From contig JBMDXS010000224.1 in assembly GCA_048595045.1 (NCBI GenBank), positions 1-60,866 of the forward strand: DNA of 60,866 nucleotides, read 5' to 3'. This DNA is from Acidimicrobiia bacterium. Lineage in GTDB: Bacteria > Actinomycetota > Acidimicrobiia > Spongiisociales > ZC4RG35. A program made the position numbers and the translations under genes. The notes under the pieces are model-generated. The model was given only the letters and a program-made list of their open reading frames with translations. It did not search any database and was not told where the DNA came from. Positions 5,210-43,678 of this stretch are shown here, piece after piece; position 1 is the stretch's first letter, and every line of letters begins with the position of its first letter.

Positions 5210-6133
5210 TCAGTCCACAATCAGGACGGCCTTCCCGTTCACCTGACGGCCGGCGAGAGCCTCGAAGACGGAGTTGGCCTCGGTCCACGGTTTCTCCAGG
5301 CCGATGCTGGGATGGAGCTTGTCGTCCGCGATGAGATCGGCGAGGAGCCGGAGGTCATCGCCGAAAGCCGGCGGCTCACCGCTCTCATAGACGAAGAAGG
5401 CGACGATCTGTGCCCCGGCTCGGCCCCGGAAGTCGGCAAAGGAGATCTGGGATGGGGTGTCGGACGAGTTCCCGAAAAGGACCACCCGCCCGCCAGGGGC
5501 GACAAGACGCACGGCCGCTTCGAGGGAATGGCCGCCGGTGGACTCGAGGATGAGGTCGAAGGGCCCTTCGAGCTGGTTCGGATCGAAGGTGACGTCAGTG
5601 GCGCCGAGCTCTCTCAACCCAGCTGCCCTCTCAGCGTCACGGGCCACACCGGTGACGATCGCCCCGGCTCCGGCGGCCAACTCAACCGCGAAGCGGCCGA
5701 CTCCACCGGAGGCCCCGGATATGAGGACCTGCTTGCCGGCGAGGGGGTCGCCCAGGCGAAGCGCCCGAAGTGCGGTCATCCCGGCGATGGGGAGCGTCGC
5801 CGCCTGCGAGAAGGACACGTCGTCACCGATCGGAGCGATGTGTGATGTAGGCAGGGCGACCCGTTGTGCCCATCCCGCCTGTTCGGGCCAGGCCACCACT
5901 CGGGTGCCCGGCCCCGGGCCCGAGCCATCGGCGGCCCTCACCACAACCACACCGGCAACGTCTTGACCCGGTCTCCAGCCCTGGGGCCGTGCCTTGAGGA
6001 GACGTAACTCGCCGCGGTTGATCGCTACTGCCGCAATCTCCACGATCGCCTCGCTGGGACCGGGCTCCGGCTCCGGGACGTCGACGAGGTCCACGACCCT
6101 GCCGCCCCCTCCCCGGTTCACCAACGCTTTCAA
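5210..6133 (-). CDS. Medium-chain dehydrogenase/reductase (quinone oxidoreductase-like, zinc-independent type)
   Basis: 307 aa. NRGELRLL..., cofactor motif LISGASGGVGRFAVELA, C-terminal GKAVLIV. Confidence 0.8.
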   Translation of the reverse strand: MKALVNRGGGGRVVDLVDVPEPEPGPSEAIVEIAAVAINRGELRLLKARPQGWRPGQDVAGVVVVRAADGSGPGPGTRVVAWPEQAGWAQRVALPTSHIAPIGDDVSFSQAATLPIAGMTALRALRLGDPLAGKQVLISGASGGVGRFAVELAAGAGAIVTGVARDAERAAGLRELGATDVTFDPNQLEGPFDLILESTGGHSLEAAVRLVAPGGRVVLFGNSSDTPSQISFADFRGRAGAQIVAFFVYESGEPPAFGDDLRLLADLIADDKLHPSIGLEKPWTEANSVFEALAGRQVNGKAVLIVD

Positions 6134-6164
6134 TGCTCCCTTACCTCCATGAAGTCCACGCTAG

Positions 6165-6572
6165 TTAGCGGGCAACGACATGGGTCACCGGGACGTCGAG
6201 GGCCCTGCTCAGTCGATTGATGAGGTCGGCACCGAGCCATCGGGAGATCCCAGGTGGGAAAGTGGAGACGATGATGCGATCGAATTCCTCCACTTCGACC
6301 ACGTCCAGGATGGCCTGGTAGGGATCGGGGTCGCCGACCCTGGCATCAGTCACCTCCACGCCGGATGCTTCGAGGAGCCTGCGGGCCGAGTTCGCCTTCT
6401 CACGTGCGATCGCCCGGGATTCGCCCGTTGTCCAGCTGGTGAGATGCTTCACCGGCGTGGCAGGGACGAGGAGCACGACCTCGGAGTCGGTCGCGGCCGC
6501 AGACCGGACCGCCTCCAGGAACTCATCGGTCTCGGCGGTCTGATGGGCCACCGCGAGCAGACGTGTCATCAC
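6165..6572 (-). CDS. Universal-stress-protein-like (adenine nucleotide alpha-hydrolase-like) small protein
   Basis: LLAVAHQTAETDEFLEAV...VVLLVPATP...VGDPDPYQAILDVVEVEEFDRIIVSTFPPGISRWLGADLINRL...VPVTHV is a pattern seen in actinobacterial USP-like proteins. Confidence 0.55.
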   Translation of the reverse strand: MMTRLLAVAHQTAETDEFLEAVRSAAATDSEVVLLVPATPVKHLTSWTTGESRAIAREKANSARRLLEASGVEVTDARVGDPDPYQAILDVVEVEEFDRIIVSTFPPGISRWLGADLINRLSRALDVPVTHVVAR

Positions 6573-6827
6573 ACACCTCGTCTGATCGTGTCACCGTCGC
6601 GCCGACGGCGGGACCTGTCAAGGGTCGAGGAAGGTGTTACCCGGCCCGGCGCCGGCTTCGGATGGCGGGGCATGAGAGAAGCCCCGCTGACGTCTCCGCC
6701 CTCGGGGCTTCCCGGGAGTGGCCCACGATGTGGGGCGCTCCTTTGGTCTCGTGATCCGGCCGTTTCCAGCCTACGTGTCCGACCAAGCACCACGAACATA
6801 CACCCCGGCGTGCGGTGTGTCATCCCC

Positions 6828-7997
6828 CTAGATCAGTCTGCCCTCGTGCTCGTAAAGAGGCTCATTGGCCAGTATCCGCTCACCTCCGAGCCGGGCGAGG
6901 TCGAGTGTTGGAGACTGGCCGAGGATGCGCTCGGCCAGGTGGCGGCCCACCGCCGGGCATTGCTGGAACCCGTGTCCTGAGAAGCCGGTGGCGAGGAGCA
7001 AGCCACCGATCGTGGGCCACTCCCCGATGATCGCGTTCCCATCGAGGGTGTTTACGTCGTAGAGCCCTGCCCACGATGTCCGCACCTCCAGCGAGTCGAA
7101 GACTGGGACATTCCGGAGGAGCTCTGGCCAGATCACGTCATTGAACCGGCGCCGCCCTGCGGGGGTGAAGTCGAAACCGACCGGGTCCTCGGGCCGGGAC
7201 CAGGCCATCACCCAGGTGCGGTCGCTCTCCGGCAGCGCATACACCCCGGAGGGGAGGAAGAGGCTCGGCATCCCCGCGGTCTCCACCGTCGTGGAGACCA
7301 CGTAGACGGTGCGCATGGCGGGCACGACGGGGAGGTCGACCCCCAGTGGCCGGACCAGGTCTGCCGACCAGGCACCGGCAGCGACGAGCACTATCGGAGC
7401 AATGAGGTCGGATCCGGATCGAAGATGCACGCCTGTCACCCGCCCTCCCGCCTTGCTCACTGCCAGCACCTCGTCCTCCAGGTAACGGGCCCCGAGCTCG
7501 ATTGCCTTGTTCCTGTATCCGCGAAGCACGGCACCGGGATCGACGGAACCGTCGTCGACGCCCAGGGTCCCGCCCACGATCCCGTCTAGCTCCAGACCGG
7601 GGAATCGCTCTTCGATATCAGATGAGTCCAGCCACAGCACGTCGCAGGCGAGCTCTCTTTGCAGCTCGAGGCCCTCGAGAGCCGACTCCCGGTGAGCTTC
7701 GTCGGCCAGGAACAGGTTGCCCTGGTGCCTTGCGCCGATCTCGGGCCGGAAGGTGGCCGTCGACATGTCGTCGGCGAAGGTCCGGAGTACTTCCATCGTG
7801 TGCTGTGAGATCCGGATGTTCTCCTCGAGATTGAACTGGATGCGGACGTTGCCGTCGGAGAGGACGGTCGAGGCATGGGCGTAGGTGCTGTCCCTCTCGA
7901 TCACGACCACGGAGAGAGAGGGATCGGCCTTCATGAGGTGGTAGGCAGTCGACGACCCCATCGCTCCACCACCGACGATTACGACGTCGTGGCTCAT
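6828..7997 (-). CDS. FAD-dependent oxidoreductase, DAO family (sarcosine/D-amino-acid oxidase-like)
   Basis: [24 protein letters not shown] motif and C-terminal [14 protein letters not shown]. Start set at ATG 7997 (GGGGAG 8 nt upstream); the ORF-track start at 8018 is also possible. Confidence 0.8.
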
Positions 7998-32686: not shown

Positions 32687-35422
32687 TCACCAGCGGGAGA
32701 GGAGCCAGAGCTCGGGCTCGAACTCGCCCGAGTCGATGTCGGCGAATAATGACACCGCCTTGTTCAGGGCATCCCGCGCCTCGGCTTCACGGCCGGCGCG
32801 GTGATGGAGGTCGGCGAGATGGTCCCAGAGCGCCGCCTCCCGATGACGATGTCCGGTACGGTCGGCGATCGAAATCGCCTCCTCCACGAGCCGGACGGCC
32901 GTCGGGCTTTCGCGGCCCTCTGAGAGGAGACTCGCCTTGTTGTTGAGTGCCGCCATCCGGAGGAGATCGTCGGTTCCCGCCAGTCTGAGGGCCTCATCGG
33001 CATGCACCAACGCCTCCTTGCTGTTGCTGCTGACAACGGCGAGGATGTTGCGCACCCTGGATCGGTGAGCGGGGCTGTCGTCGTCCTCGGCTGCCGATCG
33101 GGCCCGCTCCGCCAGCTCGGCCGCCTTGGTCGCGTCCCCAACCCGATGCGCCAGCAATGCCCAGTCGGCGAGCACCTCGGCCGGCGCCGGGTGGGTGAGG
33201 AGCGCTTTCTCGAAGTGCGCCTCGGCGTCGTCGAAACGTCCGAGCAGGCGTTCTACATCGCCGGTCCGATGCTCGATGACGCCTGCTGAATCCGGTCCGG
33301 CATGTGCCGACGCCAGAGTGAGCTCACGTCTGGCCCGGTCGTACTCCCCGGCCGCCATGGCGATCTCGGCGAGGGCCAGTCGGGCGCCGGCGACGTCTGC
33401 ATCACCGACGGCCAGGGCGATCTCGTAGAACTTCCGGGCCGATTCGTTGGCATACACGCTCCGAGAAAGGTCCCCGGCCAGGTGGTACCACTCCGCAGCC
33501 TCGTCGTCGCCGGCCGCCTGATACTGACCGGCGACGGCAGCGGCCAGCCGGGCGTCCGAACGGGCGTGCCCCCGCTCGGACAAGGCGCGGGCCGCCCTGC
33601 GGTGGAGCAGCCGCCGACGAACCATCGACGTCGCTTCGTAAGTGACTCGCTCCAGGGCGTCGAGAGTGAATGCGAGGCCATCGGACTCGGGTATCTCCCG
33701 TAGGAGACGGGCGGCCACTAGCTCCTCGACGGCTTCGACCACCTCCTCCTCACTCCGACCGCTCGTCTCGCGCAGGAGGGTGGCATCACAGATGCCGTTC
33801 AAGGCCGCGGCGGCGGTGAGGATCTGACGGGCGAGGTCGCCGACCTCGAGTAGCCGCGCCTCCATGTAGCGGGCTATTCCAGGAGTCGCTGGATCCGCGT
33901 CCGCAGCCAGGGCCTCGTTGATCAGCAGAGGAACCCCTCCGGTCTGTTCGAGCAATCGGGCAGCTTCGCTGTCGTCGCCATCGGTCAGTGGGATCAGGTG
34001 CTGGAGGGCCAGGGGCTGGACCTCGACCCTCTCGGCGGCTCCGGACATCATCTCAGCAACCGGCAGAAGGAGATCGTCCTCGGTCCTGGCGGCGAGCACC
34101 ATCAGGACGGGGAGGTTCCCGATGCGTCGGGCGAGGTAGGAGAAGAGCGAGGCCGATGCCTGGTCCATCCACTGGACGTCGTCGAGGATCACGACCAGTG
34201 GACGCCTCGCGGTGAGAGCCGACATAGCGGTGAAGATCCCCTCCAACAGCCTGAGCTCACCGAATCGATCGGGCGTCGCCGTGGCTTCACCGGTCTCGAG
34301 CCCGGGCACCAGCCTCCCCACCTCGTGGACCGCCCAATCCGGGATCTCATCCCTGTTCCCATCGATCATCGGGGCTGCCCCGGCCAGGACCTGGGTGGCC
34401 ACACCATAAGGCAGGTCTTGCTCCATCCTGAAGGCCCGGCCGATCAGGATGCCGGCCTCACGACCGGCAGCCGATGCGAATTCTTCGAGGAGACGGGTCT
34501 TCCCCATCCACGGCGCCCCGGTCATCGACAGCACGCATCCCTGCCCGGCAGTGGCCCGGCGCATCGTCCGGCCCAGTAGTCCCAGCTCATCCTCTCGATC
34601 GATGAGGTCGGGCTGCTGCACGGTCCTGACAGGTGTCTCCGCCTTGACCCGGCGTGGAGCCCCCGGGGCCGGGGGCAAGTCCTCGTCGAGTATGGCCTCG
34701 TACAGCTCGGTGGTCTCTTCGAGCGGTGCCACCCCCAGCTCCTGCTCGAGAACGGTGACACATGCGCGATAGGCCTCGATGGCACCGGGCCGGTCACCCG
34801 ACCAGGCATGGAGAAGCATGAGGAAGCGGTGAGCCGGTTCGTGGAGGGGGTCCAACTCCAGCCAGCGGGTCACCGCCGTGATAGCACCCGGGTAATCACC
34901 AGCGGCGGCCAGGGCAGTGCCCAGCCGGTGGCAGGTCTCCCCAATCCGGATCCGCACCGTTTCGGACATATTCCGGACCCAGTCCTCGAACTCGGGGGAC
35001 GCTTTCAACGAGAAGCCCTCGAGGAACTCACCCCGGTAGAGGTCGGAAGCATTGCGCAGATGCGGGATGCAGCGGTCGCAGACATCGCGCGGGTCATGGC
35101 CGTGGTCCCGGGTGGCGGCGATCTCGGCTTCCAGGATGTCGAGGTCCGACCGCGTCGGCCCGATCAGCGTGACCAGGTTGCGGTCCGCCGCGATCAGATC
35201 GGACCGGGTGGCTCCCCGAAGGGCGGAGAGGGTGCGTCTCAGGGTGGCTCGGGCCCGTTCCTGTGATGCATCGGCCCAGAACAGGGCCGCCAGCGAGTCC
35301 CTCGATCCCGACCTCTCAACCGTCAGAAAGGCGAGCAGGGCGATGGCCTTGCGGGTATCGACAACGACCGGCTTTCCGTCGAGGAGGACCTCGGGACGTC
35401 CCAAGAGATTGATTTCGAGCAA
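32687..35422 (-). CDS. SARP/AfsR-like regulator: OmpR-type wHTH + BTAD + P-loop NTPase + TPR repeats
   Basis: MLEINLLGRPEVLLDGKPV...RKAIALLAFL (wHTH), the BTAD helix region (...HRFLMLLHAWSGDRPGAIEAYRACVTVLEQELGVAP), Walker A MTGAPWMGKTRLLEEF, Walker B VVILDDVQWMD, and a long C-terminal TPR-like region. Confidence 0.85.
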   Translation of the reverse strand: MLEINLLGRPEVLLDGKPVVVDTRKAIALLAFLTVERSGSRDSLAALFWADASQERARATLRRTLSALRGATRSDLIAADRNLVTLIGPTRSDLDILEAEIAATRDHGHDPRDVCDRCIPHLRNASDLYRGEFLEGFSLKASPEFEDWVRNMSETVRIRIGETCHRLGTALAAAGDYPGAITAVTRWLELDPLHEPAHRFLMLLHAWSGDRPGAIEAYRACVTVLEQELGVAPLEETTELYEAILDEDLPPAPGAPRRVKAETPVRTVQQPDLIDREDELGLLGRTMRRATAGQGCVLSMTGAPWMGKTRLLEEFASAAGREAGILIGRAFRMEQDLPYGVATQVLAGAAPMIDGNRDEIPDWAVHEVGRLVPGLETGEATATPDRFGELRLLEGIFTAMSALTARRPLVVILDDVQWMDQASASLFSYLARRIGNLPVLMVLAARTEDDLLLPVAEMMSGAAERVEVQPLALQHLIPLTDGDDSEAARLLEQTGGVPLLINEALAADADPATPGIARYMEARLLEVGDLARQILTAAAALNGICDATLLRETSGRSEEEVVEAVEELVAARLLREIPESDGLAFTLDALERVTYEATSMVRRRLLHRRAARALSERGHARSDARLAAAVAGQYQAAGDDEAAEWYHLAGDLSRSVYANESARKFYEIALAVGDADVAGARLALAEIAMAAGEYDRARRELTLASAHAGPDSAGVIEHRTGDVERLLGRFDDAEAHFEKALLTHPAPAEVLADWALLAHRVGDATKAAELAERARSAAEDDDSPAHRSRVRNILAVVSSNSKEALVHADEALRLAGTDDLLRMAALNNKASLLSEGRESPTAVRLVEEAISIADRTGHRHREAALWDHLADLHHRAGREAEARDALNKAVSLFADIDSGEFEPELWLLSRW

Positions 35423-35450: not shown

Positions 35451-35538
35451 AACGTAGCGTTGGCGTTACGACGTAGGGAAAACCGACGCAGATCGGAACG
35501 TATGTTGTTCCCTGACGTTCACCGTTTCACTTACGTAA
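35451..35538. promoter_or_regulatory. Divergent promoter region with four ACGTA copies (candidate regulator-binding sites)
   Basis: ACGTA at 35452, 35471, 35498 and 35533, the last within the palindrome TACGTA. All fall within the 142-bp gap between the SARP gene and the sensor operon. Confidence 0.35.
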
Positions 35539-35564
35539 CGCTGCGATGCCAATCTGCGTCTCGC

Positions 35565-36764
35565 ATGAGGGATGGAGAGGCAGGGGCGGCGGGCGTCGGG
35601 GCCAGGAGGGCGTTTGTGGTGGCGCTCGTCGGAGTGGTTCTCCTCGCGGTTCGGATCGTCGGTGGGATGGTCGGATGGCTGGATCCCCTGTCCTTCGATA
35701 CTGAGACCTGGGGAAACCTGATGACGATGACCCTTTTTCTCGTCCTCGGCCCCCTCGTCTTATGGAAAGCAAACGGGAACCGCGTCGGTTGGGTCTTTTC
35801 CGGCATCGGGCTGTTCATTGCCGGTTCGGCGATAGCCGGCGGTCTGGCCGACCGGGGGTATCTGGCGTTCTCCGCCATCGGGGGAGGCTTGTGGCTCGGG
35901 TGGATCATCGGTGTTGGAACCCTGGTCCTTTGGTTTCCCACGGGCGAGGTTCCGTCCCGACGATGGCTATGGCTGCAGTGGCTCGGCTTAGCCCTGGTGG
36001 CCCTCACCTTCATCAGCTACTCCTTCACCGATCAGCTCTGCGCCGATTTCTCCGACGGGGAGTGTCTGCAGTGGGTGAGCAACCCAATCGGCATTCGGGG
36101 GATGCCCAACCCGGAGTTCGGTTGGCTGTCCGGCCCGCTGTTCGCCCTGTATCCCGTCTTCATGGGTGGCGCCGTCTTGTCGTTGTTCATGCGGTACCGG
36201 AAGGCGAAGACCGTGGAGCGGCTCCAGCTGAAGTGGTTCCTCCTGGCATGCGCTTCCTTCGTCGCCGCCCTGGGGACCGAGATCTTCTTGGAAGGCATCG
36301 GAATCGCCCAGCCACCACTCCTGGTGGATCTATGGATCGACCTATCGATCATCGCCATACCGATCGCGGCGACGCTCGCGATCCTGCGATACCGGCTCTA
36401 CGAGATCGACCGGATCATCTCCCGGACCGTGTCCTATGCGATCGTGATCGCACTGCTGGGCCTGGTCTACGCCGTGGGTCTGACCGGGCTCACCTCCCTG
36501 CTCGACGCGGACTCCCCATTGGCCGTGGCTGCCTCCACATTGGCCGCGGCCGCTCTCTTCAACCCTCTGCGGCGACGAGTCCAGGGTATGGTCGACCATC
36601 GGTTCAATCGCACCCGATATGACGCGGAGCGAGTCATGACCGGGTTCACCGACACACTCAGGGATGAGGTCGATCCGGAGAAGGTGGTGGGGGGCTGGGT
36701 CTCGGTGGTCAACGAGACCATGCATCCTGCATCGGCCGGAGTGTGGATGCGAAGCCGGTCATGA
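35565..36764 (+). CDS. Polytopic membrane sensor-like protein, paralog 1 (no catalytic domain)
   Basis: About 9-10 hydrophobic spans, then ERLQLKWF..., LRYRLYEIDRIISRTVSY, and the tail ALFNPLRRRVQGMVDHRFNRTRYDAERVMTGFTDTLRDEVDPEKVVGGWVSVVNETMHPASAGVWMR. Start is uncertain (ATG 35565 or 35502); ORF-track 35052 overlaps the SARP gene. Confidence 0.7.
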   Translation: MRDGEAGAAGVGARRAFVVALVGVVLLAVRIVGGMVGWLDPLSFDTETWGNLMTMTLFLVLGPLVLWKANGNRVGWVFSGIGLFIAGSAIAGGLADRGYLAFSAIGGGLWLGWIIGVGTLVLWFPTGEVPSRRWLWLQWLGLALVALTFISYSFTDQLCADFSDGECLQWVSNPIGIRGMPNPEFGWLSGPLFALYPVFMGGAVLSLFMRYRKAKTVERLQLKWFLLACASFVAALGTEIFLEGIGIAQPPLLVDLWIDLSIIAIPIAATLAILRYRLYEIDRIISRTVSYAIVIALLGLVYAVGLTGLTSLLDADSPLAVAASTLAAAALFNPLRRRVQGMVDHRFNRTRYDAERVMTGFTDTLRDEVDPEKVVGGWVSVVNETMHPASAGVWMRSRS

Positions 36765-37876
36765 GAAGGGTCTGGATCCTCGCTCTTCTCCTGATCTCGG
36801 TGGGGGGAACGCTCATGGGGGTATTCAACGGGCCGCTCGCCGCCGCCGGTGACAGGCTCTGGCCCCTGAGCTGGATGTCGTGGCCCCTGGTCGGTGCGAT
36901 CATCCTCTTCCGCAGGCCGGGTAACAGGATTGGGATCGCCTGCATGTCAATCGGCTTGGTCTGGGGGATCGCCTTCGGCCTCCAATCCACAGTCCTCGAC
37001 GTCTCCGCTGGCGCCGCTGCCTGGATGGAGCTCGTCTACACGGTTCTCGGAGTCGTCCCGTGGCTGATCATCGTCTGGCTGCTGGCCAACTTCCCAACCG
37101 GGGTGCCGGCAGGAAGTCTCGAGCGCATCGTCAACCGTGCACTGGTGCTGGTCGGTGCTTGGGCCACCCTTGGTTTCATTTTCAGTCCTGCACCTCTTTC
37201 CGACACGGGGCTGGCCAATCCCTTATCCGTCTCGGCACCGGTCCTGACAATGATCACGAGCGATGGCGGCTTCTTGGTCGTCGTGGTTCTCGCGGTCACG
37301 GCGGTGATCAGCCTGGTAATTCGTCTCCGACACAGCTCCGGGATCGAACGTCTCCAATTCAGATGGTTGGCGCTCGGAAGCTCGCTTTTTGTTGTGATCT
37401 CGGCATTGGGTCAGTTCATGCCCGAAGACTCGGCGGGTGAGCTCCTCTGGCTGCTGGGCGGGTCGGCGATCCCGTTATCGATCGGGGTTGCGGTGATCAG
37501 GTACCGGCTGTTCGAGATCGATCGTCTCCTGTCCCGGACCGTTGGCTATGTCGTAGTCGTCGCCGCGCTCGGCGTTATCTACTTCGCGGTCGTGGCGTTG
37601 CTCACCTCGATCCTGTCCGCCGACAGCAGTCTCGCGGTGGCGGGCTCCACCCTCGCTGTGGCAGCACTCTTCAACCCGCTGCGTCGTCGGGTCCTGGCAG
37701 GAGTCGATCGACGCTTCAACCGCTCCCGTTATGACGCAGAGCAAGTCATGACCAGGTTCATCGGAAACCTGAGGAATGAGGTAGATCCCGGACGGGTTCT
37801 GGGCGGATGGGTGTCGGTGGTCAACGAGACCATGAGGCCGGCATCGTCGGGGTTATGGGTGCGGGAGACCCGATGA
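36761..37876 (+). CDS. Polytopic membrane sensor-like protein, paralog 2
   Basis: ATGA overlap with paralog 1 (36761-36764). ERLQFRWL, IRYRLFEIDRLLSRTVGY, ALFNPLRRRVLAGVDRRFNRSRYDAEQVMTRF...EVDPGRVLGGWVSVVNETMRPASSGLWVR. Confidence 0.7.
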   Translation: MRRVWILALLLISVGGTLMGVFNGPLAAAGDRLWPLSWMSWPLVGAIILFRRPGNRIGIACMSIGLVWGIAFGLQSTVLDVSAGAAAWMELVYTVLGVVPWLIIVWLLANFPTGVPAGSLERIVNRALVLVGAWATLGFIFSPAPLSDTGLANPLSVSAPVLTMITSDGGFLVVVVLAVTAVISLVIRLRHSSGIERLQFRWLALGSSLFVVISALGQFMPEDSAGELLWLLGGSAIPLSIGVAVIRYRLFEIDRLLSRTVGYVVVVAALGVIYFAVVALLTSILSADSSLAVAGSTLAVAALFNPLRRRVLAGVDRRFNRSRYDAEQVMTRFIGNLRNEVDPGRVLGGWVSVVNETMRPASSGLWVRETR

Positions 37877-39018
37877 GAAGCATGTCGGTCCGCGTCATGC
37901 TCGCCCTCTGGGTTCTGGTAATGCTGTCACTGGGCCTGGTTTGGTTGGTTCTCCAGGAGACCTACGACTCGACAGCGGGCGTTCTGTTCGGCGCCTGCTG
38001 TGCCCTTGTGGTCGGGGCGATCCTTACCGCTCGTGTGCCCGGGAATGCAGTCGGGCCGCTGTACTTGATCGCTGGGTCGGCCTGGGTCCTGTATTCCAGT
38101 GGGAGCGCCTACGGGCTCGCCTCCCTGGGCGGCGCCGAGCCCCTGCCGGCTGCTTATTTCTTCGCATGGCTGGGGGGATGGACCGGCGCATTGCTTCCGC
38201 TGGGCATCGCTGCCGTGATCATGATCTTCCCCACGGGCAAGCCTGTCGGCTGGTGGCGGGTGTGGCTGCTCGGGCCTATCGCAGGGGCAATCTCGTCGGT
38301 GACAGGAGCGATCATGATCTGGGGTGAGCCTCTCACGACCCTTACCGACCAGGATCTTCTAAGCAGCATCGGCAGCTATCGCTTCATCGATGCAGCTTTC
38401 ATCATCGGCTTCATCTCTGCCATACCCGCAGCTTTCTCGGTCATCGCCCGATATCGGAGGGCAACAGATATCGAGCGACACCAGATCAAGTGGCTGCTCG
38501 CCGCAGCCAGCCTGTTTGCCCTCTCCTATATCTCCGGGGCTATCACCGAAGACACGAACGAGTTGTCGTGGTGGCTGTTGTCCTTCGCCTTGGCCGCCAT
38601 TCCCATCTCCATCCTCTTCGCGGTGCTTCGTTATCGCCTCTACGACATCGACCGGATCCTGTCCAGGACGGTTTCCTACCTGATCGTCCTCGGCGTCCTG
38701 ACCGGTGTCTATATGATCGGGCTCAGCGTCCTGTCGTCCCTCTTCTCGGAGTCCTCCTTGACTGTCGCGGCTTCTACCCTGGCCGCTGCCGCCCTCTTCA
38801 CACCGCTGCGGCGACGGGTCCAGGCCGGGGTGGAGAGGAGATTCAACCGTTCGCGCTATGACGCCGAGCAGGTGATGGATGGGTTTTCCGGCTCGCTCCG
38901 CCAGGGTCTCGACCCAAACAAGCTGGTGGAGGGCTGGGTCGGTGTCGTGTCCGAGACGATGCAGCCAACGTCGGTCTCTGTTTGGATTCGTAACGATTTC
39001 GGGACGTTGGAGGGATAG
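37873..39018 (+). CDS. Polytopic membrane sensor-like protein, paralog 3
   Basis: ATGA overlap with paralog 2 (37873-37876). ERHQIKWL, LRYRLYDIDRILSRTVSY, ALFTPLRRRVQAGVERRFNRSRYDAEQVMDGF...GLDPNKLVEGWVGVVSETMQPTSVSVWIR. Confidence 0.7.
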   Translation: MRSMSVRVMLALWVLVMLSLGLVWLVLQETYDSTAGVLFGACCALVVGAILTARVPGNAVGPLYLIAGSAWVLYSSGSAYGLASLGGAEPLPAAYFFAWLGGWTGALLPLGIAAVIMIFPTGKPVGWWRVWLLGPIAGAISSVTGAIMIWGEPLTTLTDQDLLSSIGSYRFIDAAFIIGFISAIPAAFSVIARYRRATDIERHQIKWLLAAASLFALSYISGAITEDTNELSWWLLSFALAAIPISILFAVLRYRLYDIDRILSRTVSYLIVLGVLTGVYMIGLSVLSSLFSESSLTVAASTLAAAALFTPLRRRVQAGVERRFNRSRYDAEQVMDGFSGSLRQGLDPNKLVEGWVGVVSETMQPTSVSVWIRNDFGTLEG

Positions 39019-39027
39019 AAAAAGGGC

Positions 39028-40659
39028 ATGGTTCAGCTGATGAGACGACGCAGAGCTGAGGGGACAGACGCGGCCCCGGTCGAGGAGACCGCGCCGGAGT
39101 CGAAGACGAGGCTCATCGACGCCATCCCGATCCCGATGGGGGATCCCCTCGAGACACTGCTCCTGTCCTCCGGAGGCCCGGTGGTCCTGCGGGATCTCGA
39201 ATTCGAGTCGGCCACCCTCGACGGTTTACGCGAGTCCGGTGTGGAGCTGGTCGTGCCGCTGATCGGCCAGGGCGAGCTTCTTGGCGCGTTGTATCTCGGC
39301 CCCCGCCTCTCCGACCAGCCCTATTCGACAGATGATCGGCGTCTGTTGGGGAGCCTTGCCTCTCAGGTGGCGCCGGCCATGAAGGTGGCCCAATTGGTCA
39401 GAGAGCAACAGGCGGAGGCCAAGGAGCGGGAGCGCATCCAGCAGGAGCTCCAGGTCGCCGCACTGATCCAGCAGACCTTGCTGCCAAAGGAGTTGCCCGC
39501 CATCACCGGATGGCAGGTCGATGCGTTCTACCGACCGGCACGCGCCGTCGGAGGCGACTTCTACGACTTCATCGACCTCGAAGACGGGCGGCTCGGCGTC
39601 GTCATAGGCGATGTCACGGACAAGGGTGTGCCCGCGGCACTCGTGATGGCTACCTGCCGGTCGATGCTCCGGGCGGCGGCGCAACGTCATTCCTCGCCTT
39701 CGGCGGTTCTGGCCGAGGTGAACGACTCCCTTGTTCCGGAGATCCCCCCGGCCATGTTCGTCACCTGCCTCTACGCCATCATCGATACCGGGGCCGGCGA
39801 GATCGTCTTCGCCAACGCCGGACACAACCTGCCATATGTGCGTAGCAACGGCGGGGTGATCGAGCTGAGGGCGACGGGGATGCCGCTCGGGCTCATGCCG
39901 GGGATGAGTTATGAGGAGACGAGTTACGGGATGGGTGCCGGCGAGGTCATGGTCCTGACCAGCGACGGGATCACCGAGGCCCACAGCCCCGAGGGCGAGA
40001 TGTACGGATTTGCCCGGCTCATGGGACGGGTCGGCAAGAAGACCTCCGAGGACGACATGCTCAACGAGGTGGTCAACGACCTGGAGAAGTTCACCGGCCC
40101 GGATGCAGAGCAGGAAGACGACATCACTCTCGTGGTCGTCAAACGGACCTACTCCGCCGAGGATGCGGCCTCGACGTTCCTCCCTCTGGAAGGGGGCGTA
40201 GCGCCGCAGGATGGGGGGGAATCCGAAAGCCCGCAGGTCCTGGCGAGATTCAGTGTTCCCAGCGAAGAAGGCAACGAACGGATCGCCATAGCCAAGGTGA
40301 CCGCCGCCATCGCCTCACTGGCGCTTCAGCCCGACCGTCTCGAGCGCCTCAAGACCGCGGTTGGGGAGACGGTGATGAACGCAATAGAGCACGGCAACGA
40401 GTTCCGTGCCGATCTTGATGTAGAGGTCGAAGTCTGCGCCAACGACGACACCGTGAGTGTTCTCGTCACCGATCAAGGCGGTGACAAGGTGATCCCCGAG
40501 GCGGCGGTCCCCGACATCGAAGCCAAGCTGGCCGGTGAGCAGACCCCGCGTGGTTGGGGCCTGTTCCTCATCGAGCGAATGGTCGACGAGGTCAAGTCGA
40601 CGAGCAACGGCGGGGCACACACCGTCGAGCTCGTCATGAACCGGGAAGGAGCCCTCTGA
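39028..40659 (+). CDS. PP2C/SpoIIE-family protein phosphatase fused to an RsbW/SpoIIAB-type HATPase (anti-sigma-like Ser kinase) domain
   Basis: PP2C motifs AVGGDFYDF, GDVTDKGVPAALVMA, LTSDGITEA, DDITLVVVK. C-terminal HATPase with N-box ETVMNAIEHGN and G-box GWGLFLIERMVDEV. The N-terminal ~130 aa carries only a GAF-tail-like stretch (VVPLIGQGELLGALYLGPRLSDQPYSTDDRRLLGSLASQVA). Confidence 0.85.
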   Translation: MVQLMRRRRAEGTDAAPVEETAPESKTRLIDAIPIPMGDPLETLLLSSGGPVVLRDLEFESATLDGLRESGVELVVPLIGQGELLGALYLGPRLSDQPYSTDDRRLLGSLASQVAPAMKVAQLVREQQAEAKERERIQQELQVAALIQQTLLPKELPAITGWQVDAFYRPARAVGGDFYDFIDLEDGRLGVVIGDVTDKGVPAALVMATCRSMLRAAAQRHSSPSAVLAEVNDSLVPEIPPAMFVTCLYAIIDTGAGEIVFANAGHNLPYVRSNGGVIELRATGMPLGLMPGMSYEETSYGMGAGEVMVLTSDGITEAHSPEGEMYGFARLMGRVGKKTSEDDMLNEVVNDLEKFTGPDAEQEDDITLVVVKRTYSAEDAASTFLPLEGGVAPQDGGESESPQVLARFSVPSEEGNERIAIAKVTAAIASLALQPDRLERLKTAVGETVMNAIEHGNEFRADLDVEVEVCANDDTVSVLVTDQGGDKVIPEAAVPDIEAKLAGEQTPRGWGLFLIERMVDEVKSTSNGGAHTVELVMNREGAL

Positions 40660-41000
40660 TGGAGAGCGTTTTCGAGGCGACGGTGTCCAGGACCGGGGAC
40701 GGTTCGGTCGTGGTCATGAGTGGGACCGTCAACCGGGCGGCGAAGGAAGCCCTGGAGAGCGCGTACGAGGAAGCCGCATCCGGGCCGGGGAGGATCCTGA
40801 TGGACTTCCGGGATGTCGACTACATCAACTCGACGGGGATAGCGGTCATCGTCGGGGTGCTGGCGATCGCCCGGGCCGAGCAACGCGAGGTCGCGGCATT
40901 CGGGCTGACCGATCATTACCGGGAGGTGTTCACCATCACCCGGTTGTCCGATTTCATGACCATCTACGACAACGAGACGGCTGCAGCCGCGGCCGGGTGA
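40659..41000 (+). CDS. STAS-domain anti-sigma-factor-antagonist-like protein 1
   Basis: ATG 40659 overlaps the upstream TGA (TGATG). VVVMSGTVNRAAKEALE...ILMDFRDVDYINSTGIAVIVG...FGLTDHYREVFTITRL keeps the conserved phosphorylatable Ser/Thr position. Confidence 0.8.
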   Translation: MESVFEATVSRTGDGSVVVMSGTVNRAAKEALESAYEEAASGPGRILMDFRDVDYINSTGIAVIVGVLAIARAEQREVAAFGLTDHYREVFTITRLSDFMTIYDNETAAAAAG

Positions 41001-41011
41001 GGAGAGGACCC

Positions 41012-41362
41012 ATGCCAACAGCCAACACGACCATGAACGTTCGGGAGGTGGCCCCCCGGGTTCGAGTGATCGACATCTCTGGAGAGATCACCGCCTTCTC
41101 CGAGAAGGAGATCTCGACCGCCCACGAAGCGGCGGCGGAGGGCGGGGTCGACGCCGTGGTGCTCAACTTCGAAGGGCTCGAGTACATGAACAGCGGTGGG
41201 ATCGGGTTGCTGGTCACCACTTTGATCAGAGCCCAGCGAAGCGGTCATCGCCTGATGGCCTACGGACTGACCGACCACTACAGCCAGATCTTCTCGCTGA
41301 CACGTCTGGATGAGGCGATCGAGATCTTCGACGACGAGGCCGCCGCGCTGTCCGCGGTATGA
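41012..41362 (+). CDS. STAS-domain anti-sigma-factor-antagonist-like protein 2
   Basis: GGAGAGG SD 5 nt before ATG 41012 (GTG 40997 is an alternative). VIDISGEITAFSEKEI...VVLNFEGLEYMNSGGIGLLVT...YGLTDHYSQIFSLTRL. Confidence 0.8.
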   Translation: MPTANTTMNVREVAPRVRVIDISGEITAFSEKEISTAHEAAAEGGVDAVVLNFEGLEYMNSGGIGLLVTTLIRAQRSGHRLMAYGLTDHYSQIFSLTRLDEAIEIFDDEAAALSAV

Positions 41363-41432
41363 ACCGGGCGCCGAAATTGGGAGCCTGAGCGTCGAAGACC
41401 GTCGCTCTCGATCCCAATTTCGCAAGAGAAAG

Positions 41433-41459
41433 GCCGGGCCGGCGGGGCCCGGCCTTTTC
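41433..41459. terminator. Bidirectional rho-independent terminator
   Basis: GGCCGGGCC-GGCGG-GGCCCGGCC followed by TTTT and preceded by AAA. Lies between the convergent STAS2 (+) and CrtI-like (-) genes. Confidence 0.65.
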
Positions 41460-41472
41460 GCGGGCCGGGGTG

Positions 41473-42867
41473 TCAGCCCTTCAGGGCGGCCCGGGCCGCG
41501 TAATAGCCGCACATCCCGTGGACACCGGCCCCCGGCGGGGTCGCCGAGGAGCAGAGGAAGAGGCCGTCGCCGATGCGGTAGGGCGCGGTGGACCCGAGCT
41601 GGAACACCTTCTTGACCCCGAACCCGCCACCGGCGATGTCACCCTTGATGTAGTTGGGGTTGTGGGCCTCGAACTGGCCGGCGTTCATCGTGTGACGCTC
41701 CAGGATGAGGTCTCTGAATCCGGGTGCGAACCGCTCGACCTGTCGCTCTATGACTTCGGTCATGTCGACAGCCGACCCCGAAGGAACGTGGCAGTAGCCC
41801 CAGGCAGTGTGCTTGCCTTCCGGTGCCCGGGTCGGATCGAAGCGGCTCTGCTGGGCGAGGAGGACGAACGGTCGGTCCGGGTGGTTTCCCGAATGCACTT
41901 GATCCTCGGCTGCTAACACCTCCTCCCACGTCCCTCCGACATGGACAGTTCCCGCCCTGGTACTCCACTCGTCGGCCCATGGGATGGGGCCGTCGAGCGC
42001 CCAATCGACCTTGAACACGGCCGGCCCCGTCTTCCAAGCGGTCAGTCGACGTCGCTCCCATGGGCTGACGCGAGCACCACCAATCCGGATCGCGGCACGT
42101 GGCATGACGTCGAGGATCGTCACAGGAGCTGCGGGCAGCTGGTCGATCGATCCGACCATGTGCCCGGTCTCGATCGTGCCACCATGGTCGACGATCACCT
42201 TTGCCAGGGCCTCGGCTATCCGTTGGGACCCACCCTTGACCATGGGCCATCCATAGGCGTGAGCCGACACACCGAACAGCAATGCCACTCCTCCGGTCAG
42301 AGGTGAGCTGAATGGGGCAATGGCGTGGGCGGCGAGCCCGGCGAGGACACCGCGCGCCTCGGTCGATGTGAACCCGGAGGCGATGATCGAGGCCGGCAGG
42401 GCGCCGCGGCTCGCCAGCTTCACGAAGCTCCCCGGGTTGTCCGGTACGAGGGTCATCGGGCCGAGGAAGTCTTCCATCACGGCATCGGCCGCTTCGACCA
42501 GCGGACCGAGGATGCGCCGATAGTGGCGGGCATCCTCCCCGAAGCGGCGGGCCGTCGCCTCGACGTCTCGCTCGACGACCCCGACCCGGCCCCCGCCGAG
42601 GGGATGGGCCAGGGGGACGTCGGGATGGACCCACTCGACCTCGAGACCGAGGTCTCGGAAGAACGGCGAGCCGACCCCGAGCGGGTGGATCGCCGAGCAG
42701 ACGTCGTGGGCGAAGCCGGGAAGGGTGAGCTGCTCGGTTCTCGTGCCACCGCCGATCTCTCCGGCTTGCTCGACGACCAGGACCCTTCGCCCGCGTCGTG
42801 ACAGCTCCGCCGCGGCAGAGAGCCCATTGGGGCCGGCTCCGACAACTACCGCGTCGTACTCGGACAT
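41473..42867 (-). CDS. NAD(P)/FAD-dependent oxidoreductase, phytoene-desaturase (CrtI)-like family (second copy)
   Basis: YDAVVVGAGPNGLSAAAELSRRGRRVLVVEQAGEIGGG. 464 aa. C-terminal LFLCSSATPPGAGVHGMCGYYAA. Confidence 0.8.
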   Translation of the reverse strand: MSEYDAVVVGAGPNGLSAAAELSRRGRRVLVVEQAGEIGGGTRTEQLTLPGFAHDVCSAIHPLGVGSPFFRDLGLEVEWVHPDVPLAHPLGGGRVGVVERDVEATARRFGEDARHYRRILGPLVEAADAVMEDFLGPMTLVPDNPGSFVKLASRGALPASIIASGFTSTEARGVLAGLAAHAIAPFSSPLTGGVALLFGVSAHAYGWPMVKGGSQRIAEALAKVIVDHGGTIETGHMVGSIDQLPAAPVTILDVMPRAAIRIGGARVSPWERRRLTAWKTGPAVFKVDWALDGPIPWADEWSTRAGTVHVGGTWEEVLAAEDQVHSGNHPDRPFVLLAQQSRFDPTRAPEGKHTAWGYCHVPSGSAVDMTEVIERQVERFAPGFRDLILERHTMNAGQFEAHNPNYIKGDIAGGGFGVKKVFQLGSTAPYRIGDGLFLCSSATPPGAGVHGMCGYYAARAALKG

Positions 42868-42916: not shown

Positions 42917-43678
42917 ATGATGGGAACCCGGGGATCTCGTAACGGTGGCGGAACGCGGGCATGGTTCATTGACGGGATCGGAGAAAGGAACGAGTTGACC
43001 GAGCCAAGGGATTCGGAGAGCTGGGCGCAGCCGGTCGACGCCTTCCACGTGGGGGAGGTCGCCGAGGGAGCACGCAAGGGAAACGTCGAGGGGCGAAAGC
43101 CGACCGGGCCGCTCCAGGGCTTCGGCCAGTTGTGGCAGAAGAGCTATGAGGTGCGGGTCCCCGGGCCCACACCCGAGGAGCTGATCGCCAGCTGGAAGGC
43201 CAAGTTCGGCGACTTCTGGCCCGACTACAACAAGTTCTATGCCCCAGCCGGCGGCATTTCGCCCGGTGAGGTGGCCGTGATCGGGGGTGGCAAGGGCCCG
43301 GCCAAGGTGACGACGGGTGTCAGGGTGATCTATGCCGACGAGCGCTCGTGGTCATACATGACCCCGGAGGGCCATCCCTGGGCGGCGATCATCACCTTCA
43401 GCGCCCACGACGGGGACGATGGGGCCACCGTGGCCAGGATCCATCTCTTGGTTCGCGCCAACGATCCCCTCTACGAGGTGAGCTTCAAGCTGTTCACTTC
43501 ACGAATGGAGGACAGGATCTGGAACCACACCTTGATCCAGGTGGCCTCCCATTACGGCGTCGAGGAACCGGTGGTCGAGACGACGGTCCTCCTCGTGGAC
43601 AAGAAACGACAGTGGGGTCAGTTCTCCAACATCTACAAGAACTCCGCCGTTCGGACCATGCTGCGACGGGATCGTTAG
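42917..43678 (+). CDS. Hypothetical protein (tentatively DUF1990-like)
   Basis: Coding-looking ORF. ERSWSYMTPEGHPWAAIITFSAHDGDDG loosely resembles the F.YGTL.GHP... core I recall for DUF1990. Start at ATG 42917, just beyond the divergent gene start at 42867. Confidence 0.5.
   Translation: MMGTRGSRNGGGTRAWFIDGIGERNELTEPRDSESWAQPVDAFHVGEVAEGARKGNVEGRKPTGPLQGFGQLWQKSYEVRVPGPTPEELIASWKAKFGDFWPDYNKFYAPAGGISPGEVAVIGGGKGPAKVTTGVRVIYADERSWSYMTPEGHPWAAIITFSAHDGDDGATVARIHLLVRANDPLYEVSFKLFTSRMEDRIWNHTLIQVASHYGVEEPVVETTVLLVDKKRQWGQFSNIYKNSAVRTMLRRDR

Follow-up and report, generated by a model that had tools for sequence, protein, structure and literature searches.

A membrane-bound sensor phosphatase/kinase putatively split by gene fission, with a GAF domain divided between genes, in a STAS partner-switching locus of an Acidimicrobiia bacterium

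Our analysis points to a GAF domain that is cut in two. In a six-gene locus of an Acidimicrobiia bacterium, at positions 35565 to 41362 of a 60,866-nucleotide stretch of DNA (the window), the first helix and strand of this domain are, judging by homology, on the tails of three membrane proteins (genes 1 to 3), and the remainder is on a phosphatase/kinase (gene 4) that is followed by two STAS proteins (genes 5 and 6). We consider it reasonably probable that a membrane-bound sensor phosphatase/kinase, divided by gene fission, drives a STAS partner switch here, with the mechanism and the promoter proposed below. We found no published description of such a split-sensor arrangement.

The six genes listed in a preliminary description of this DNA are real and were correctly placed, all on the forward strand. 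Genes 1 (35565 to 36764; 399 amino acids), 2 (36761 to 37876; 371 amino acids) and 3 (37873 to 39018; 381 amino acids) encode polytopic membrane paralogues and are joined by ATGA overlaps at 36761 to 36764 and 37873 to 37876. A 9-nucleotide gap precedes ATG 39028 of gene 4 (39028 to 40659; 543 amino acids), which meets gene 5 (40659 to 41000; 113 amino acids; Pfam STAS, 2.6e−10) at TGATG (40657 to 40661), and GGAGAGG (41001 to 41007) precedes the ATG of gene 6 (41012 to 41362; 116 amino acids; Pfam STAS, 2.8e−13). The GC-rich hairpin reported downstream of gene 6 is also present (41428 to 41458, not assigned to a strand; −27.8 kcal/mol, z = −2.45), with TTTT (UUUU in RNA) directly after it; it is absent from the output of a stricter terminator scan that requires at least 5 T. 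Lying between gene 6 and a convergent oxidoreductase gene, it is a probable bidirectional terminator.

The origin of the membrane proteins is indicated by natural fusions. In related organisms a single polypeptide combines a membrane part of about 10 helices with a GAF domain and a PP2C domain, sometimes also with an RsbW-type kinase, and a STAS gene follows. In these fusions the model of the membrane family and the model of gene 4 abut, as in P0478, where they cover residues 13 to 396 (E = 1.9e−108) and 402 to 750 (E = 3.4e−173), respectively, and Pfam GAF is matched end to end (model positions 1 to 133 in P0418 and 1 to 130 in P0461). P0461 is a 7TM-GAF-PP2C-kinase protein of 1,008 residues, kinase included, encoded on a 39.6-kb contig with a STAS gene directly after it. 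By homology to these proteins, genes 1 to 3 are not the kinase-less sensors of the preliminary description but the N-terminal portions of sensor phosphatases of the 7TM-GAF-PP2C(-kinase) type, with the cut inside the GAF domain. They indeed have no catalytic domain recognizable by Pfam, and no HisKA/HATPase remnants of a degraded histidine kinase; gene 2 gave a HisKA_7TM match below the threshold (23.6 bits; cutoff, 28.6). For gene 3, AlphaFold models about 10 membrane helices with confidence (pLDDT 82 to 96); both termini are placed inside. Gene 1, whose start MRDGE is kept in the orthologues of loci L001 and L020, belongs to a very large family with mostly unnamed members.

Gene 4 begins with a basic leader (residues 1 to about 30) that the fused relatives lack. 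It continues with the C-terminal part of a GAF domain (residues 32 to 118; nucleotides 39121 to 39381), a helical linker, a PP2C/SpoIIE domain (residues 186 to 373; 39583 to 40146; Pfam SpoIIE, E = 1.5e−51) and an RsbW-type HATPase_c_2 domain (residues 416 to 535; 40273 to 40632; Pfam, E = 2.8e−18). The protein had been thought to lack a sensor domain; it in fact holds the C-terminal two-thirds of one, and alone it matches only positions 46 to 132 of the Pfam GAF model. Its top Foldseek match is 3ke6, the RsbU and RsbW domains of Rv1364c (E = 3.5e−14). Nor is the fusion of kinase and phosphatase the defining oddity it was taken for: Rv1364c and HsbR/CrsR are precedents, and a sister clade encodes the kinase as a separate gene.

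Where, then, is the start of the GAF domain? Extension of the GAF match and homology to the GAF start of the natural fusions place its predicted first helix and first strand on the conserved, cytoplasmic, C-terminal tails of gene 1 (36672 to 36761; DPEKVVGGWVSVVNETMHPASAGVWMR), gene 2 (37784 to 37873) and gene 3 (38911 to 39015). When any of the three tails is joined to the N-terminus of gene 4, the Pfam GAF match reaches model position 12 or 13, with a score gain of just 2 to 5 bits, and that of GAF_3 reaches position 2; with the gene 1 tail, Pfam GAF is matched from position 13. A profile of paired tails and gene 4 N-termini matches solved GAF domains only, weakly (E = 1e−3 to 1e−2), and individual PDB alignments span the junction. 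In two AlphaFold runs on artificial fusions, confidence in the tail and GAF region was low (pLDDT below 50 in run 1, averaging 52.7 in run 2).

The lack of a confidently complemented GAF domain in these models is a point in favor of an ordinary Rsb-like switch that happens to sit beside membrane proteins (anchors, transporters or sensors of something different), the tails being leftovers of the fission and the GAF part of gene 4 working, or being inert, alone. To this explanation we assign a minor but appreciable probability. It has difficulty with the tail, where conservation among the paralogues is highest (59 to 66% identity from RYRLYDID to the end versus 28 to 34% in the membrane part) and whose end point is shared by 222 copies from two phyla, a constancy that a leftover would lose. 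In addition, a GAF fold would probably be unstable by itself if the first strand, which helps to form the sheet, were missing. The neighborhoods weigh on both sides. In the comparison set of 80 related loci that we fetched, membrane-gene adjacency was scored in 79; against an ordinary switch, tandem paralogues directly precede gene 4 in 50 of these. In the other 29 the gene directly upstream is not a membrane gene, and in 13 loci no membrane gene lies within 10 kb, so that gene 4 may work without a neighboring partner, or with distant ones. An internal promoter-like box, described below, could likewise uncouple the expression of gene 4 from genes 1 to 3.

The split form itself is widespread. 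All 80 related loci have two STAS genes after gene 4, and the tandem membrane genes before it number from 0 to about 8; such arrays occur in Acidimicrobiia, Thermoleophilia, Nitriliruptorales and Chloroflexota. The arrangement of gene 4, two STAS genes and membrane genes is thus not unique to this contig, and it is far beyond chance. Among the reading frames of these loci and the window, 222 bear the tail and 82 the C-terminal GAF part, and none carries both; the membrane homologues all end within about 35 residues past the same strand. Considering that fused relatives exist and that genes 3 and 4 share a frame in the window, separated by a single TAG and three codons, one might suspect a decaying pseudogene, that is, a fused 7TM-GAF-PP2C-kinase gene that a nonsense mutation has broken and that degraded duplicate fragments precede. 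We find this hardly credible, and it is already contradicted by the intact reading frames of the split form in 80/80 genome loci and in metagenome relatives, from Actinomycetota and Chloroflexota. Neither the serines nor the catalytic motifs vary, and orthologues of gene 1, gene 2 and gene 3 are each kept in related genomes. On this comparative evidence, the split form is not decay.

The shared frame would also permit read-through of the TAG at 39016 to 39018 into a 927-residue gene 3-4 sensor, with genes 1 and 2 as truncated duplicates, which we regard as very improbable. The last membrane gene ends in TAG in 15 of 44 loci, which would suit such a mechanism, but it shares the frame of gene 4 in only 8 of the 44, not above the one-in-three chance, and in eight loci a 4-nucleotide overlap between the two forces a frame change. 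Moreover, the TAG belongs to a conserved TAGAA element that is kept where it is intergenic, and gene 4 homologues have a conserved N-terminus and start of their own. Nearly all of the best 120 database homologues of gene 4 (68 to 96% identical) are about 520 to 560 residues long, the unfused length.

Genes 4 to 6 are, by their sequences, a standard RsbU/RsbW/RsbV-type set, in which gene 4 fuses the PP2C and kinase functions and two STAS proteins follow. This part of the preliminary description, a phosphatase/kinase/STAS phospho-switch, is borne out: the HMM searches matched SpoIIE and HATPase_c_2, the motifs of gene 4 are intact, and both STAS proteins keep a predicted phosphorylatable serine. 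Ser58 of gene 5 (codon 40830 to 40832) aligns with RsbV Ser56 in 6m36_B and is invariant in 72/72 orthologues; Ser61 of gene 6 (codon 41192 to 41194), aligned to RsbV and TM1442, is invariant in 81/81. As had been noted, no sigma factor was found in the window. Among the 80 related loci, a sigma factor lies within 10 kb in only 3, and the orthologous loci are not accompanied by a sigma/anti-sigma pair.

The gene packing is as first described, but to call the locus one unit is too simple because a promoter-like box inside it precedes gene 4. This box (38988 to 39021, forward strand) comprises a 22-bp direct repeat (TCGTAACGATT, 38988 to 38998; TCGGGACGTTG, 38999 to 39009), a 6-bp spacer and a −10-like TAGAAA (39016 to 39021), the TAG of which is the gene 3 stop. 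It is embedded in the 3′ end of gene 3, and the final codons of that gene (RNDFGTLEG, TAG) share nucleotides with the box and with the −10-like element. Scored with a matrix built without the window, the box reaches 44.3; the highest score among 10 shuffles is 12.2. From the 6 nucleotides between TAGAAA and ATG 39028, the gene 4 mRNA is predicted to be leaderless or nearly so. A box is found 5′ of gene 4 in 74 of the 80 loci, in coding and intergenic positions alike, and in 54 of these 74 a hexamer beginning with TA follows after exactly 6 bp. A second box (TCGTAACGGTG / GCGGAACGCGG, 6 bp, then TTCATT; 42937 to 42970, forward strand; score 23.0, against the shuffle maximum of 12.2) is upstream of C5, a 227-residue protein (42995 to 43678, forward strand; TTG start after GGAGAAAGG, located by tblastn of homologues from other loci) that has no match in Pfam, NCBIfam or PDB. 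C5 is present in 43/80 loci, and in 7 other loci its homologues are preceded by boxes. The convergent gene C4 (41473 to 42867, reverse strand), for a 464-residue FAD-dependent CrtI/amine-oxidase-like oxidoreductase (Pfam; NCBIfam matches below cutoff only), is present in 45/80 loci in either orientation.

The geometry of the gene 4 box is identical to the rule for SARP target promoters (PMC10936776). A large SARP-type regulator, C2, is encoded divergently (32687 to 35422, reverse strand, start codon uncertain). Its Pfam matches, BTAD (1.6e−19), AAA_16 (NOD-like ATPase; 7.9e−18) and TPR, resemble the architecture of AfsR, which is also its top NCBIfam match, far under the cutoff. A C2 homologue is divergent and adjoins the array in 55/80 loci. 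The early suggestion of a link to this regulator thereby gains support, and C2 is probably the activator of both boxes, a candidacy based on geometry and synteny. Boxes of SARP geometry before gene 4 and a downstream gene point to an AfsR-like controller and to a locus that is not one simple operon. That the CGTAACG...GGACG box is instead an RNA-level signal, for instance in translation control of gene 4, or a DNA site of an unrelated protein, seems rather unlikely to us. Any transcript from upstream would carry the element, and a standard sigma-70 scan finds no promoter there (TAGAAA lacks the final T); the promoter, like its activator, is deduced from geometry and synteny. Nevertheless, conservation takes the form of two 11-bp direct repeats, about 8 bases being conserved in each, and not of a hairpin, and an Rfam search gave no match. 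The distance from box to hexamer is fixed, whereas that from hexamer to start codon varies, long ones gaining a Shine-Dalgarno sequence, and boxes also precede unrelated genes of the cluster.

Taken as a split sensor, the locus suggests the following model. Sequence and comparison show that in the lineage of the window the gene for such a polypeptide is cut inside the GAF domain, just past the first strand of this domain. The membrane part, carrying helix 1 and strand 1, has multiplied into the tandem array of genes 1 to 3, and the remainder (GAF C-terminal part, PP2C and kinase) is gene 4, with the two STAS genes behind it. We hypothesize that each membrane protein docks on the gene 4 protein and supplies the missing helix and strand, so that the GAF domain is completed in trans and the enzyme is held at the membrane. 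The signal would pass from the rebuilt GAF domain through the long helical linker to PP2C, as in RsbU and SpoIIE, and shift the balance between PP2C and the C-terminal kinase, which would set the phosphorylation of Ser58 and Ser61. A target encoded elsewhere may then be bound either by the STAS proteins in their unphosphorylated form or by the kinase domain, as an anti-sigma factor. Genes 4 to 6 and the downstream C5 would be transcribed from the box promoters, probably activated by the AfsR-like regulator. The membrane proteins, previously named as the only candidate inputs, are likely the inputs, and with their divergent membrane parts and near-identical tails the three paralogues may be alternative inputs that compete for one enzyme.

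Downstream of three tandem membrane protein genes (genes 1 to 3, 35565 to 39018, + strand), gene 4 (39028 to 40659, +) encodes a PP2C phosphatase fused to an RsbW-type kinase. The preliminary description saw no sensor domain in gene 4, but three Pfam GAF models match its residues 32 to 118. The matches cover model positions 46 to 132 (GAF), 64 to 135 (GAF_2), and 49 to 127 (GAF_3); they start at model position 46 to 64, and the first third of the domain is missing from gene 4. No Pfam GAF model matches genes 1 to 3 alone, and a complete GAF fold (PF01590 and relatives) is absent from every single polypeptide of the window. The C-terminal ~60 residues of genes 1 to 3, here called the tail, carry the pattern FNRSRYDA ... 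LDPxxVVxGWVxVVxETMxPxSxxVWxR and are predicted to form a helix followed by a strand, resembling the start of a GAF domain. When any of the three tails was artificially joined to the N terminus of gene 4, the Pfam GAF match reached back to model position 12 to 13 and the GAF_3 match to position 2, with a small gain of 2 to 5 bits of Pfam GAF score. A profile of tail and gene 4 pairs from the same locus matched only solved GAF domains, and single PDB alignments spanned the junction (5w10, 3eea, 4mcw, and 6oap), all at weak E-values of 1e-3 to 1e-2. We therefore read the tail and the N terminus of gene 4, on sequence evidence, as the probable two parts of one complete GAF domain, with the predicted cut point in the loop after GAF strand 1. 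AlphaFold2 modeled the membrane domain, PP2C, and kinase confidently in an artificial fusion of genes 3 and 4 (924 amino acids); in the tail and GAF region of this fusion the pLDDT was below 50, from a shallow, unpaired alignment. With a cleaner, likewise shallow and unpaired alignment, the tail plus residues 1 to 200 of gene 4 reached a mean pLDDT of 52.7. A tblastn search of plasmids with the junction as the query returned no match.

Natural proteins with the unsplit form also exist. We searched 1.84 billion representative proteins with residues 25 to 140 of gene 4. The segment lies at the N terminus in most close matches and is internal in P0461 (1008 amino acids), P0418 (816 amino acids), P0478 (758 amino acids), P0488 (773 amino acids), and two fragments. 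In P0478 the membrane family profile covers residues 13 to 396 (E-value of 1.9e-108) and abuts the gene 4 profile at residues 402 to 750 (3.4e-173). In P0461 the membrane family profile (153 to 487) is followed by the gene 4 profile (503 to 1007; 5e-224), HATPase_c_2 included. P0461 was called as a gene on a JGI contig of 39.6 kb, where a STAS gene comes directly after it; gene 4 is 50% identical to P0461 over 520 amino acids. The Pfam GAF domain runs end to end in the fusions, from model position 1 to 133 in P0418, 1 to 130 in P0461, and 3 to 133 in P0478, and a more distant fusion of 763 amino acids (L139) shows the same colinearity. Because the family profiles abut and the GAF domain is complete in the fusions, the locus is very probably a domain-fission variant of a fused 7TM-GAF-PP2C-kinase sensor. 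The unsplit 7TM-GAF-PP2C(-RsbW kinase) proteins P0461, P0478, and L139, which are uncharacterized, run colinear with genes 3 and 4 taken together and share with them the membrane family, the RYRLYDID motif, the FxRxRYDA tail, the GAF domain, the linker, and the PP2C domain; P0461 also shares HATPase_c_2 and the adjacent STAS gene. They differ in being one polypeptide with a complete GAF domain (Pfam 1 to 133) and a single sensor, whereas the window has the cut after GAF strand 1, a multiplied membrane half, an extra basic leader of ~30 residues in gene 4, and two STAS genes.

This leader (39028 to 39120, residues 1 to 30 of gene 4) is absent from the fusions and conserved in gene 4 homologues (P0243 to P0360). 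It reads MVQLMRRRR here and in Acidimicrobiia and MNSIAQGWRRVLGR in Chloroflexota; outside Acidimicrobiia it reads MNSIAQGWRRVLGR or MSAWPQSIARVIRR. Judged by these sequences, the basic leader appears specific to the split form. A low-confidence model placed the leader as a strand beside the tail strand.

Two further candidates for natural fusions were rejected: the nearest DNA relatives of P0241 are split and it has no contig on record, and P0242 is a frameshifted product. Fragmented or frameshifted membrane and gene 4 copies, or gene calls extended upstream, were seen in P0242, P0083, and the long-read assemblies L020, L021, and L072; such copies look like assembly or calling errors, which are able to mimic fusions. 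The contig of the unsplit 1008-residue sensor (L150) carries a phage-type integrase gene (5712 to 6713) 1.3 kb upstream of the sensor gene and two GTAACG repeats 12 nucleotides apart (7209 to 7240), ~170 nucleotides upstream of the small gene that precedes the sensor. Giant proteins of 1300 to 3950 amino acids (P0361, P0363, P0365 to P0368, and many more) contain 6 to 19 tandem GAF segments that are ~30% identical to the GAF part of gene 4.

Is the split a product of decay on one contig? The evidence shows a split that is real and old. The closest database relatives come from Acidimicrobiia metagenome-assembled genomes, and nearly all of the 120 best gene 4 homologues (68 to 96% identical) are ~520 to 560 amino acids long, the unfused length. 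A scan for related loci, with one genome per species, found at least 497, of which we kept 80 from Acidimicrobiia, Thermoleophilia, Gaiellaceae, Nitriliruptorales, and several Chloroflexota classes. The arrangement thus recurs beyond this contig, and in 80 of 80 loci gene 4 is followed by a STAS gene of the gene 5 type and then one of the gene 6 type. Among the reading frames of the 80 loci and the window, 222 bear a tail and 82 the C-terminal part of the GAF domain, and none bears both. The array of membrane genes directly upstream varies in size, with no member in 29 loci, one in 17, two in 14, three in 4, four in 8, and 6 to 10 in 7, the highest counts being possibly inflated by frameshifted assemblies. 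Four loci whose gene 4 is 82 to 86% identical to ours (L001, L003, L020, and L021) have eight upstream membrane copies, and individual copies resemble one or another of genes 1 to 3 most closely, which argues that the paralogues are old and that the arrays change by gain and loss. Another explanation would be a fusion protein made by read-through, since genes 3 and 4 share a reading frame, with only a TAG codon and three codons for KKG between them (39016 to 39027). However, the last membrane gene is in frame with gene 4 in only 8 of 44 loci; on these frame statistics we reject read-through, which is not conserved as a programmed event, and take the in-frame TAG of the window as a coincidence.

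The membrane proteins belong to a broad family, with 7036 database clusters at an E-value of at most 1e-5, that has no name in NCBIfam. Pfam finds no catalytic domain in genes 1 to 3, as the preliminary description had held. Gene 2 has a sub-threshold match to the membrane region HisKA_7TM (PF16927), which spans model positions 13 to 222 of 224 at 23.6 bits against a cutoff of 28.6. Genes 1 and 3 have no Pfam match to this model, and neither Pfam nor NCBIfam detects a HisKA or HATPase_c domain or a remnant of one in the three genes. Moreover, the unsplit relatives run on into GAF-PP2C and not into a kinase core. Genes 1 to 3 are not decayed histidine kinases and read instead as the membrane half of a fissioned sensor. 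In a Foldseek search the full model matched structures by its PP2C and kinase domains alone and had no match for the membrane domain.

Conservation among the paralogues is concentrated in the tail. Their membrane parts are 28 to 34% identical, versus 59 to 66% from RYRLYDID to the end, the pattern that a common docking partner would give. All full-length homologues of the membrane family end within ~35 residues of the tail strand. The tail is predicted to be cytoplasmic by the positive-inside rule applied to a confident 10-helix model. This location, the tail-biased identity, and a cut point that is identical in two phyla lead us to favor, by a small margin, a reassembly of the two halves in trans, with the membrane proteins as alternative inputs. 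Taken further, the locus would encode a plug-and-socket sensor whose GAF domain comes from two genes and is assembled in trans. The membrane receptors of a variable tandem array (3 here, up to ~8 elsewhere), each with the same helix-strand plug, would compete for a single PP2C/kinase socket, and inputs into one STAS phospho-switch could be swapped or mixed by a change in the receptor genes that a cell carries or expresses. Such a scheme would be the bacterial equivalent of alternative first exons. We consider the case for this fuller scheme evenly balanced.

We are highly confident that the module is a PP2C/kinase/STAS switch, and HMM searches of genes 4 to 6 bear out the domains first read by eye: SpoIIE and HATPase_c_2 in gene 4 and STAS in genes 5 (40659 to 41000, +) and 6 (41012 to 41362, +). 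The PP2C domain (PF07228, E-value of 1.5e-51, residues 186 to 373 of gene 4) has the motifs GGDFYD, GDVTDKG, TSDGITEA, and DDITLVVV, including the metal-binding Asp, and the kinase domain (HATPase_c_2, PF13581, 2.8e-18) has the N, G1, and G2 boxes NAIEHGN, DQGGD, and GWGLF. The best structural match of the gene 4 model in Foldseek was 3ke6 (E-value of 3.5e-14, 393 aligned columns), the fused RsbU and RsbW domains of Mycobacterium tuberculosis Rv1364c; further matches were to the PP2C domains of RssB, SiaA, SpoIIE, and RsbX and, for the C-terminal domain, to SpoIIAB/RsbW. Ser58 of gene 5 and Ser61 of gene 6 align with RsbV Ser56 and are on that basis predicted to be phosphorylatable. This serine is invariant in 72 of 72 gene 5 and 81 of 81 gene 6 orthologues, within Y(I/M)NS(T/G)GI. 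The three defining features of partner switching of the RsbU/RsbW/RsbV type are thus present, and a linked target is not. The fusion of kinase and phosphatase, initially listed among the unusual features of the locus, is not shared by all relatives. In a sister clade from soil metagenomes (L083, L095, L096, L101 to L104, L108, and L109) the enzyme is encoded by two genes, one for the C-terminal GAF part plus PP2C (~390 amino acids) and one for a separate RsbW-like HATPase_c_2 kinase (~150 amino acids), followed by two STAS genes and preceded by up to five membrane genes; hence the fusion is a lineage option and not the essence of the module.

The preliminary description had found no sigma factor in the window, and our search of its reading frames found none either; among the relatives, a sigma-70-family frame lies within 10 kb in only 3 of the 80 loci. 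Both results come from phmmer with approximate RpoE and SigB queries, a search of modest sensitivity. No sigma cluster appeared among the conserved neighbors of the 80 loci. All NCBIfam scores of the module were far below the equivalog cutoffs.

By mechanism and domain content, the locus is a partner-switching module, and unlinked targets have precedents in this class. In HsbR-HsbA of Pseudomonas aeruginosa and CrsR-CrsA of Shewanella oneidensis, one protein combines a sensor, PP2C, and a GHKL kinase/anti-sigma domain; HsbR and CrsR set the phosphorylation of a STAS partner, and the targets RpoS, FlgM, and HsbD are encoded elsewhere (PMC6482189). The absence of a linked sigma gene is normal for the class. 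Gene 4 and HsbR/CrsR have the same order, PP2C and then kinase, and neither operon includes a sigma gene. HsbR/CrsR take their input from a phosphorelay through a receiver domain, whereas in the window a partial GAF domain and separate membrane proteins would provide it; the window also has two STAS proteins, and the phyla differ. Pfam finds no Response_reg in gene 4, the partial GAF domain occupying that position, and without a receiver domain gene 4 does not belong to the HsbR/CrsR family. Like gene 4, Rv1364c places an RsbU-type PP2C ahead of an RsbW-type kinase. Rv1364c is a soluble protein tied to SigF that carries PAS at its N terminus and a fused STAS domain at its C terminus, and none of these features applies to the window; lacking the PAS and the fused STAS domain, gene 4 is not an Rv1364c orthologue. 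The RsbU/RsbW/RsbV system of Bacillus and SpoIIE/SpoIIAB/SpoIIAA rely on the three activities and the phospho-serine logic that are predicted here. In SpoIIE, 10 membrane helices and a regulatory region accompany the PP2C domain. The window differs from the Bacillus systems in having no linked sigB or sigF and an input that is neither RsbT/stressosome nor FtsZ. Control of PP2C through an N-terminal regulatory domain and a helical switch (PMC8080068) would be the expected mechanism here.

The six genes are on the same strand and joined as first described, with ATGA overlaps at 36761 and 37873, a 9-nucleotide gap before ATG 39028, TGATG at 40657, GGAGAGG before ATG 41012, and, 3' of gene 6, a hairpin (-27.8 kcal/mol, z = -2.45) followed by four U. 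They nevertheless probably do not form one simple operon, since an internal promoter-like box precedes gene 4. The box has the form tCGTAACGnTT, yCGGrACGnnn, 6 bp, TA(G/C)AAn. Of the 80 loci, 74 have it before gene 4, regardless of whether the stretch is a spacer or still codes for the last membrane protein. The distance from the two 11-bp direct repeats over 6 bp to the hexamer that begins with TA is fixed in 54 of the 74; the distance from the hexamer to the start codon varies, and a Shine-Dalgarno sequence is present when it is long. The box accounts for the conserved RNDFGT ending of gene 3-type proteins and for the TAG with which the last membrane gene often stops. The window has sites at 38988 to 39021 and at 42937 to 42970. 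A matrix built without the window, with a maximum of 12.2 over ten shuffles, scored 44.3 at 38988 to 39022 (gene 4) and 23.0 at 42937 to 42971, just before a gene for a 227-residue protein. Elsewhere among the loci, the box also stands before membrane genes in 22 cases and before homologues of the 227-residue protein gene in 7. A CGTAACG half-site lies before gene 1 (35522 to 35565) and is kept in L001 (~880 to 930) at a similar spacing to the ATG, but a box there scored -0.4, within noise, and a third promoter is at most possible. A putative box before a neighboring oxidoreductase gene (6.5) was also noise. Scans for sigma-70 promoters and terminators gave nothing above chance, and Rfam had no match in the entire window.

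The geometry of the box is that of SARP-dependent promoters. SARP regulators recognize a pair of direct repeats spaced by one turn of the helix and contact ~8 bases in each, and the 22-bp box of the afsS promoter ends 6 bp before the -10 hexamer (PMC10936776). The window box likewise has two 11-bp repeats, ~8 conserved bp in each, and 6 bp to the hexamer, but its repeat sequence (CGTAACG) differs from the AfsR/SARP-dependent promoters of Streptomyces. The boxes here occur in Acidimicrobiia and Chloroflexota, at signaling genes and not at antibiotic clusters. A suitable regulator is encoded divergently from the array (32687 to 35422, -). Its Pfam domains BTAD, AAA_16, and TPR give the large-SARP layout of BTAD, NOD ATPase, and TPR, and its best NCBIfam match is AfsR (residues 5 to 314), at a score of 53.6 versus an equivalog cutoff of 1430, so that the protein has the same architecture and is not an orthologue. 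We think it fairly probable that the box acts as a promoter under the control of this regulator, which would then activate transcription before gene 4 and before the 227-residue protein gene; in the window, the mRNA of gene 4 would have little or no leader.

The genes of the 80 loci, called crudely and then clustered, showed a recurrent order: divergent regulator, membrane array, gene 4, two STAS genes, and then conserved neighbors. A divergent ~920-residue protein with BTAD, AAA_16, and TPR was present in 55 of 80 loci. The oxidoreductase, a CrtI-like FAD enzyme (41473 to 42867, -), recurs in 45 of 80 loci in either orientation, and the 227-residue protein (42995 to 43678, +), which has its own box and no match to a family, NCBIfam, or the PDB, has homologues of ~230 to 250 amino acids in 43 of 80. 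Both are candidates for the output or regulon of the switch; other candidate outputs are the AfsR-like regulator and a sigma factor encoded at a distance.

Searches of open-access papers and preprints found no description of this arrangement and no mention of a "split GAF". Compared with anything we found, the new elements are the fission inside a GAF domain, membrane halves that have multiplied into arrays with one common plug, the putative dedicated SARP-type box, and the breadth of the unnamed membrane family (7036 clusters). Partner-switching modules are common, and the route by which signals enter them is often obscure. If our proposal is true, a small-molecule or signal domain would be naturally divided inside its fold, with a membrane protein and a soluble enzyme each supplying one part of the restored domain, and one enzyme would serve an array of genes whose receptor products are interchangeable. 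For engineers of split-domain proteins, the helix-strand plug might be a natural template. The unnamed membrane proteins of 370 to 390 amino acids, a very large family, would gain a function. Moreover, the regulator, the box, the enzyme, the two STAS proteins, and the two conserved neighbors would form a testable regulon in Acidimicrobiia, Thermoleophilia, and Chloroflexota, groups with almost no experimental signaling biology.
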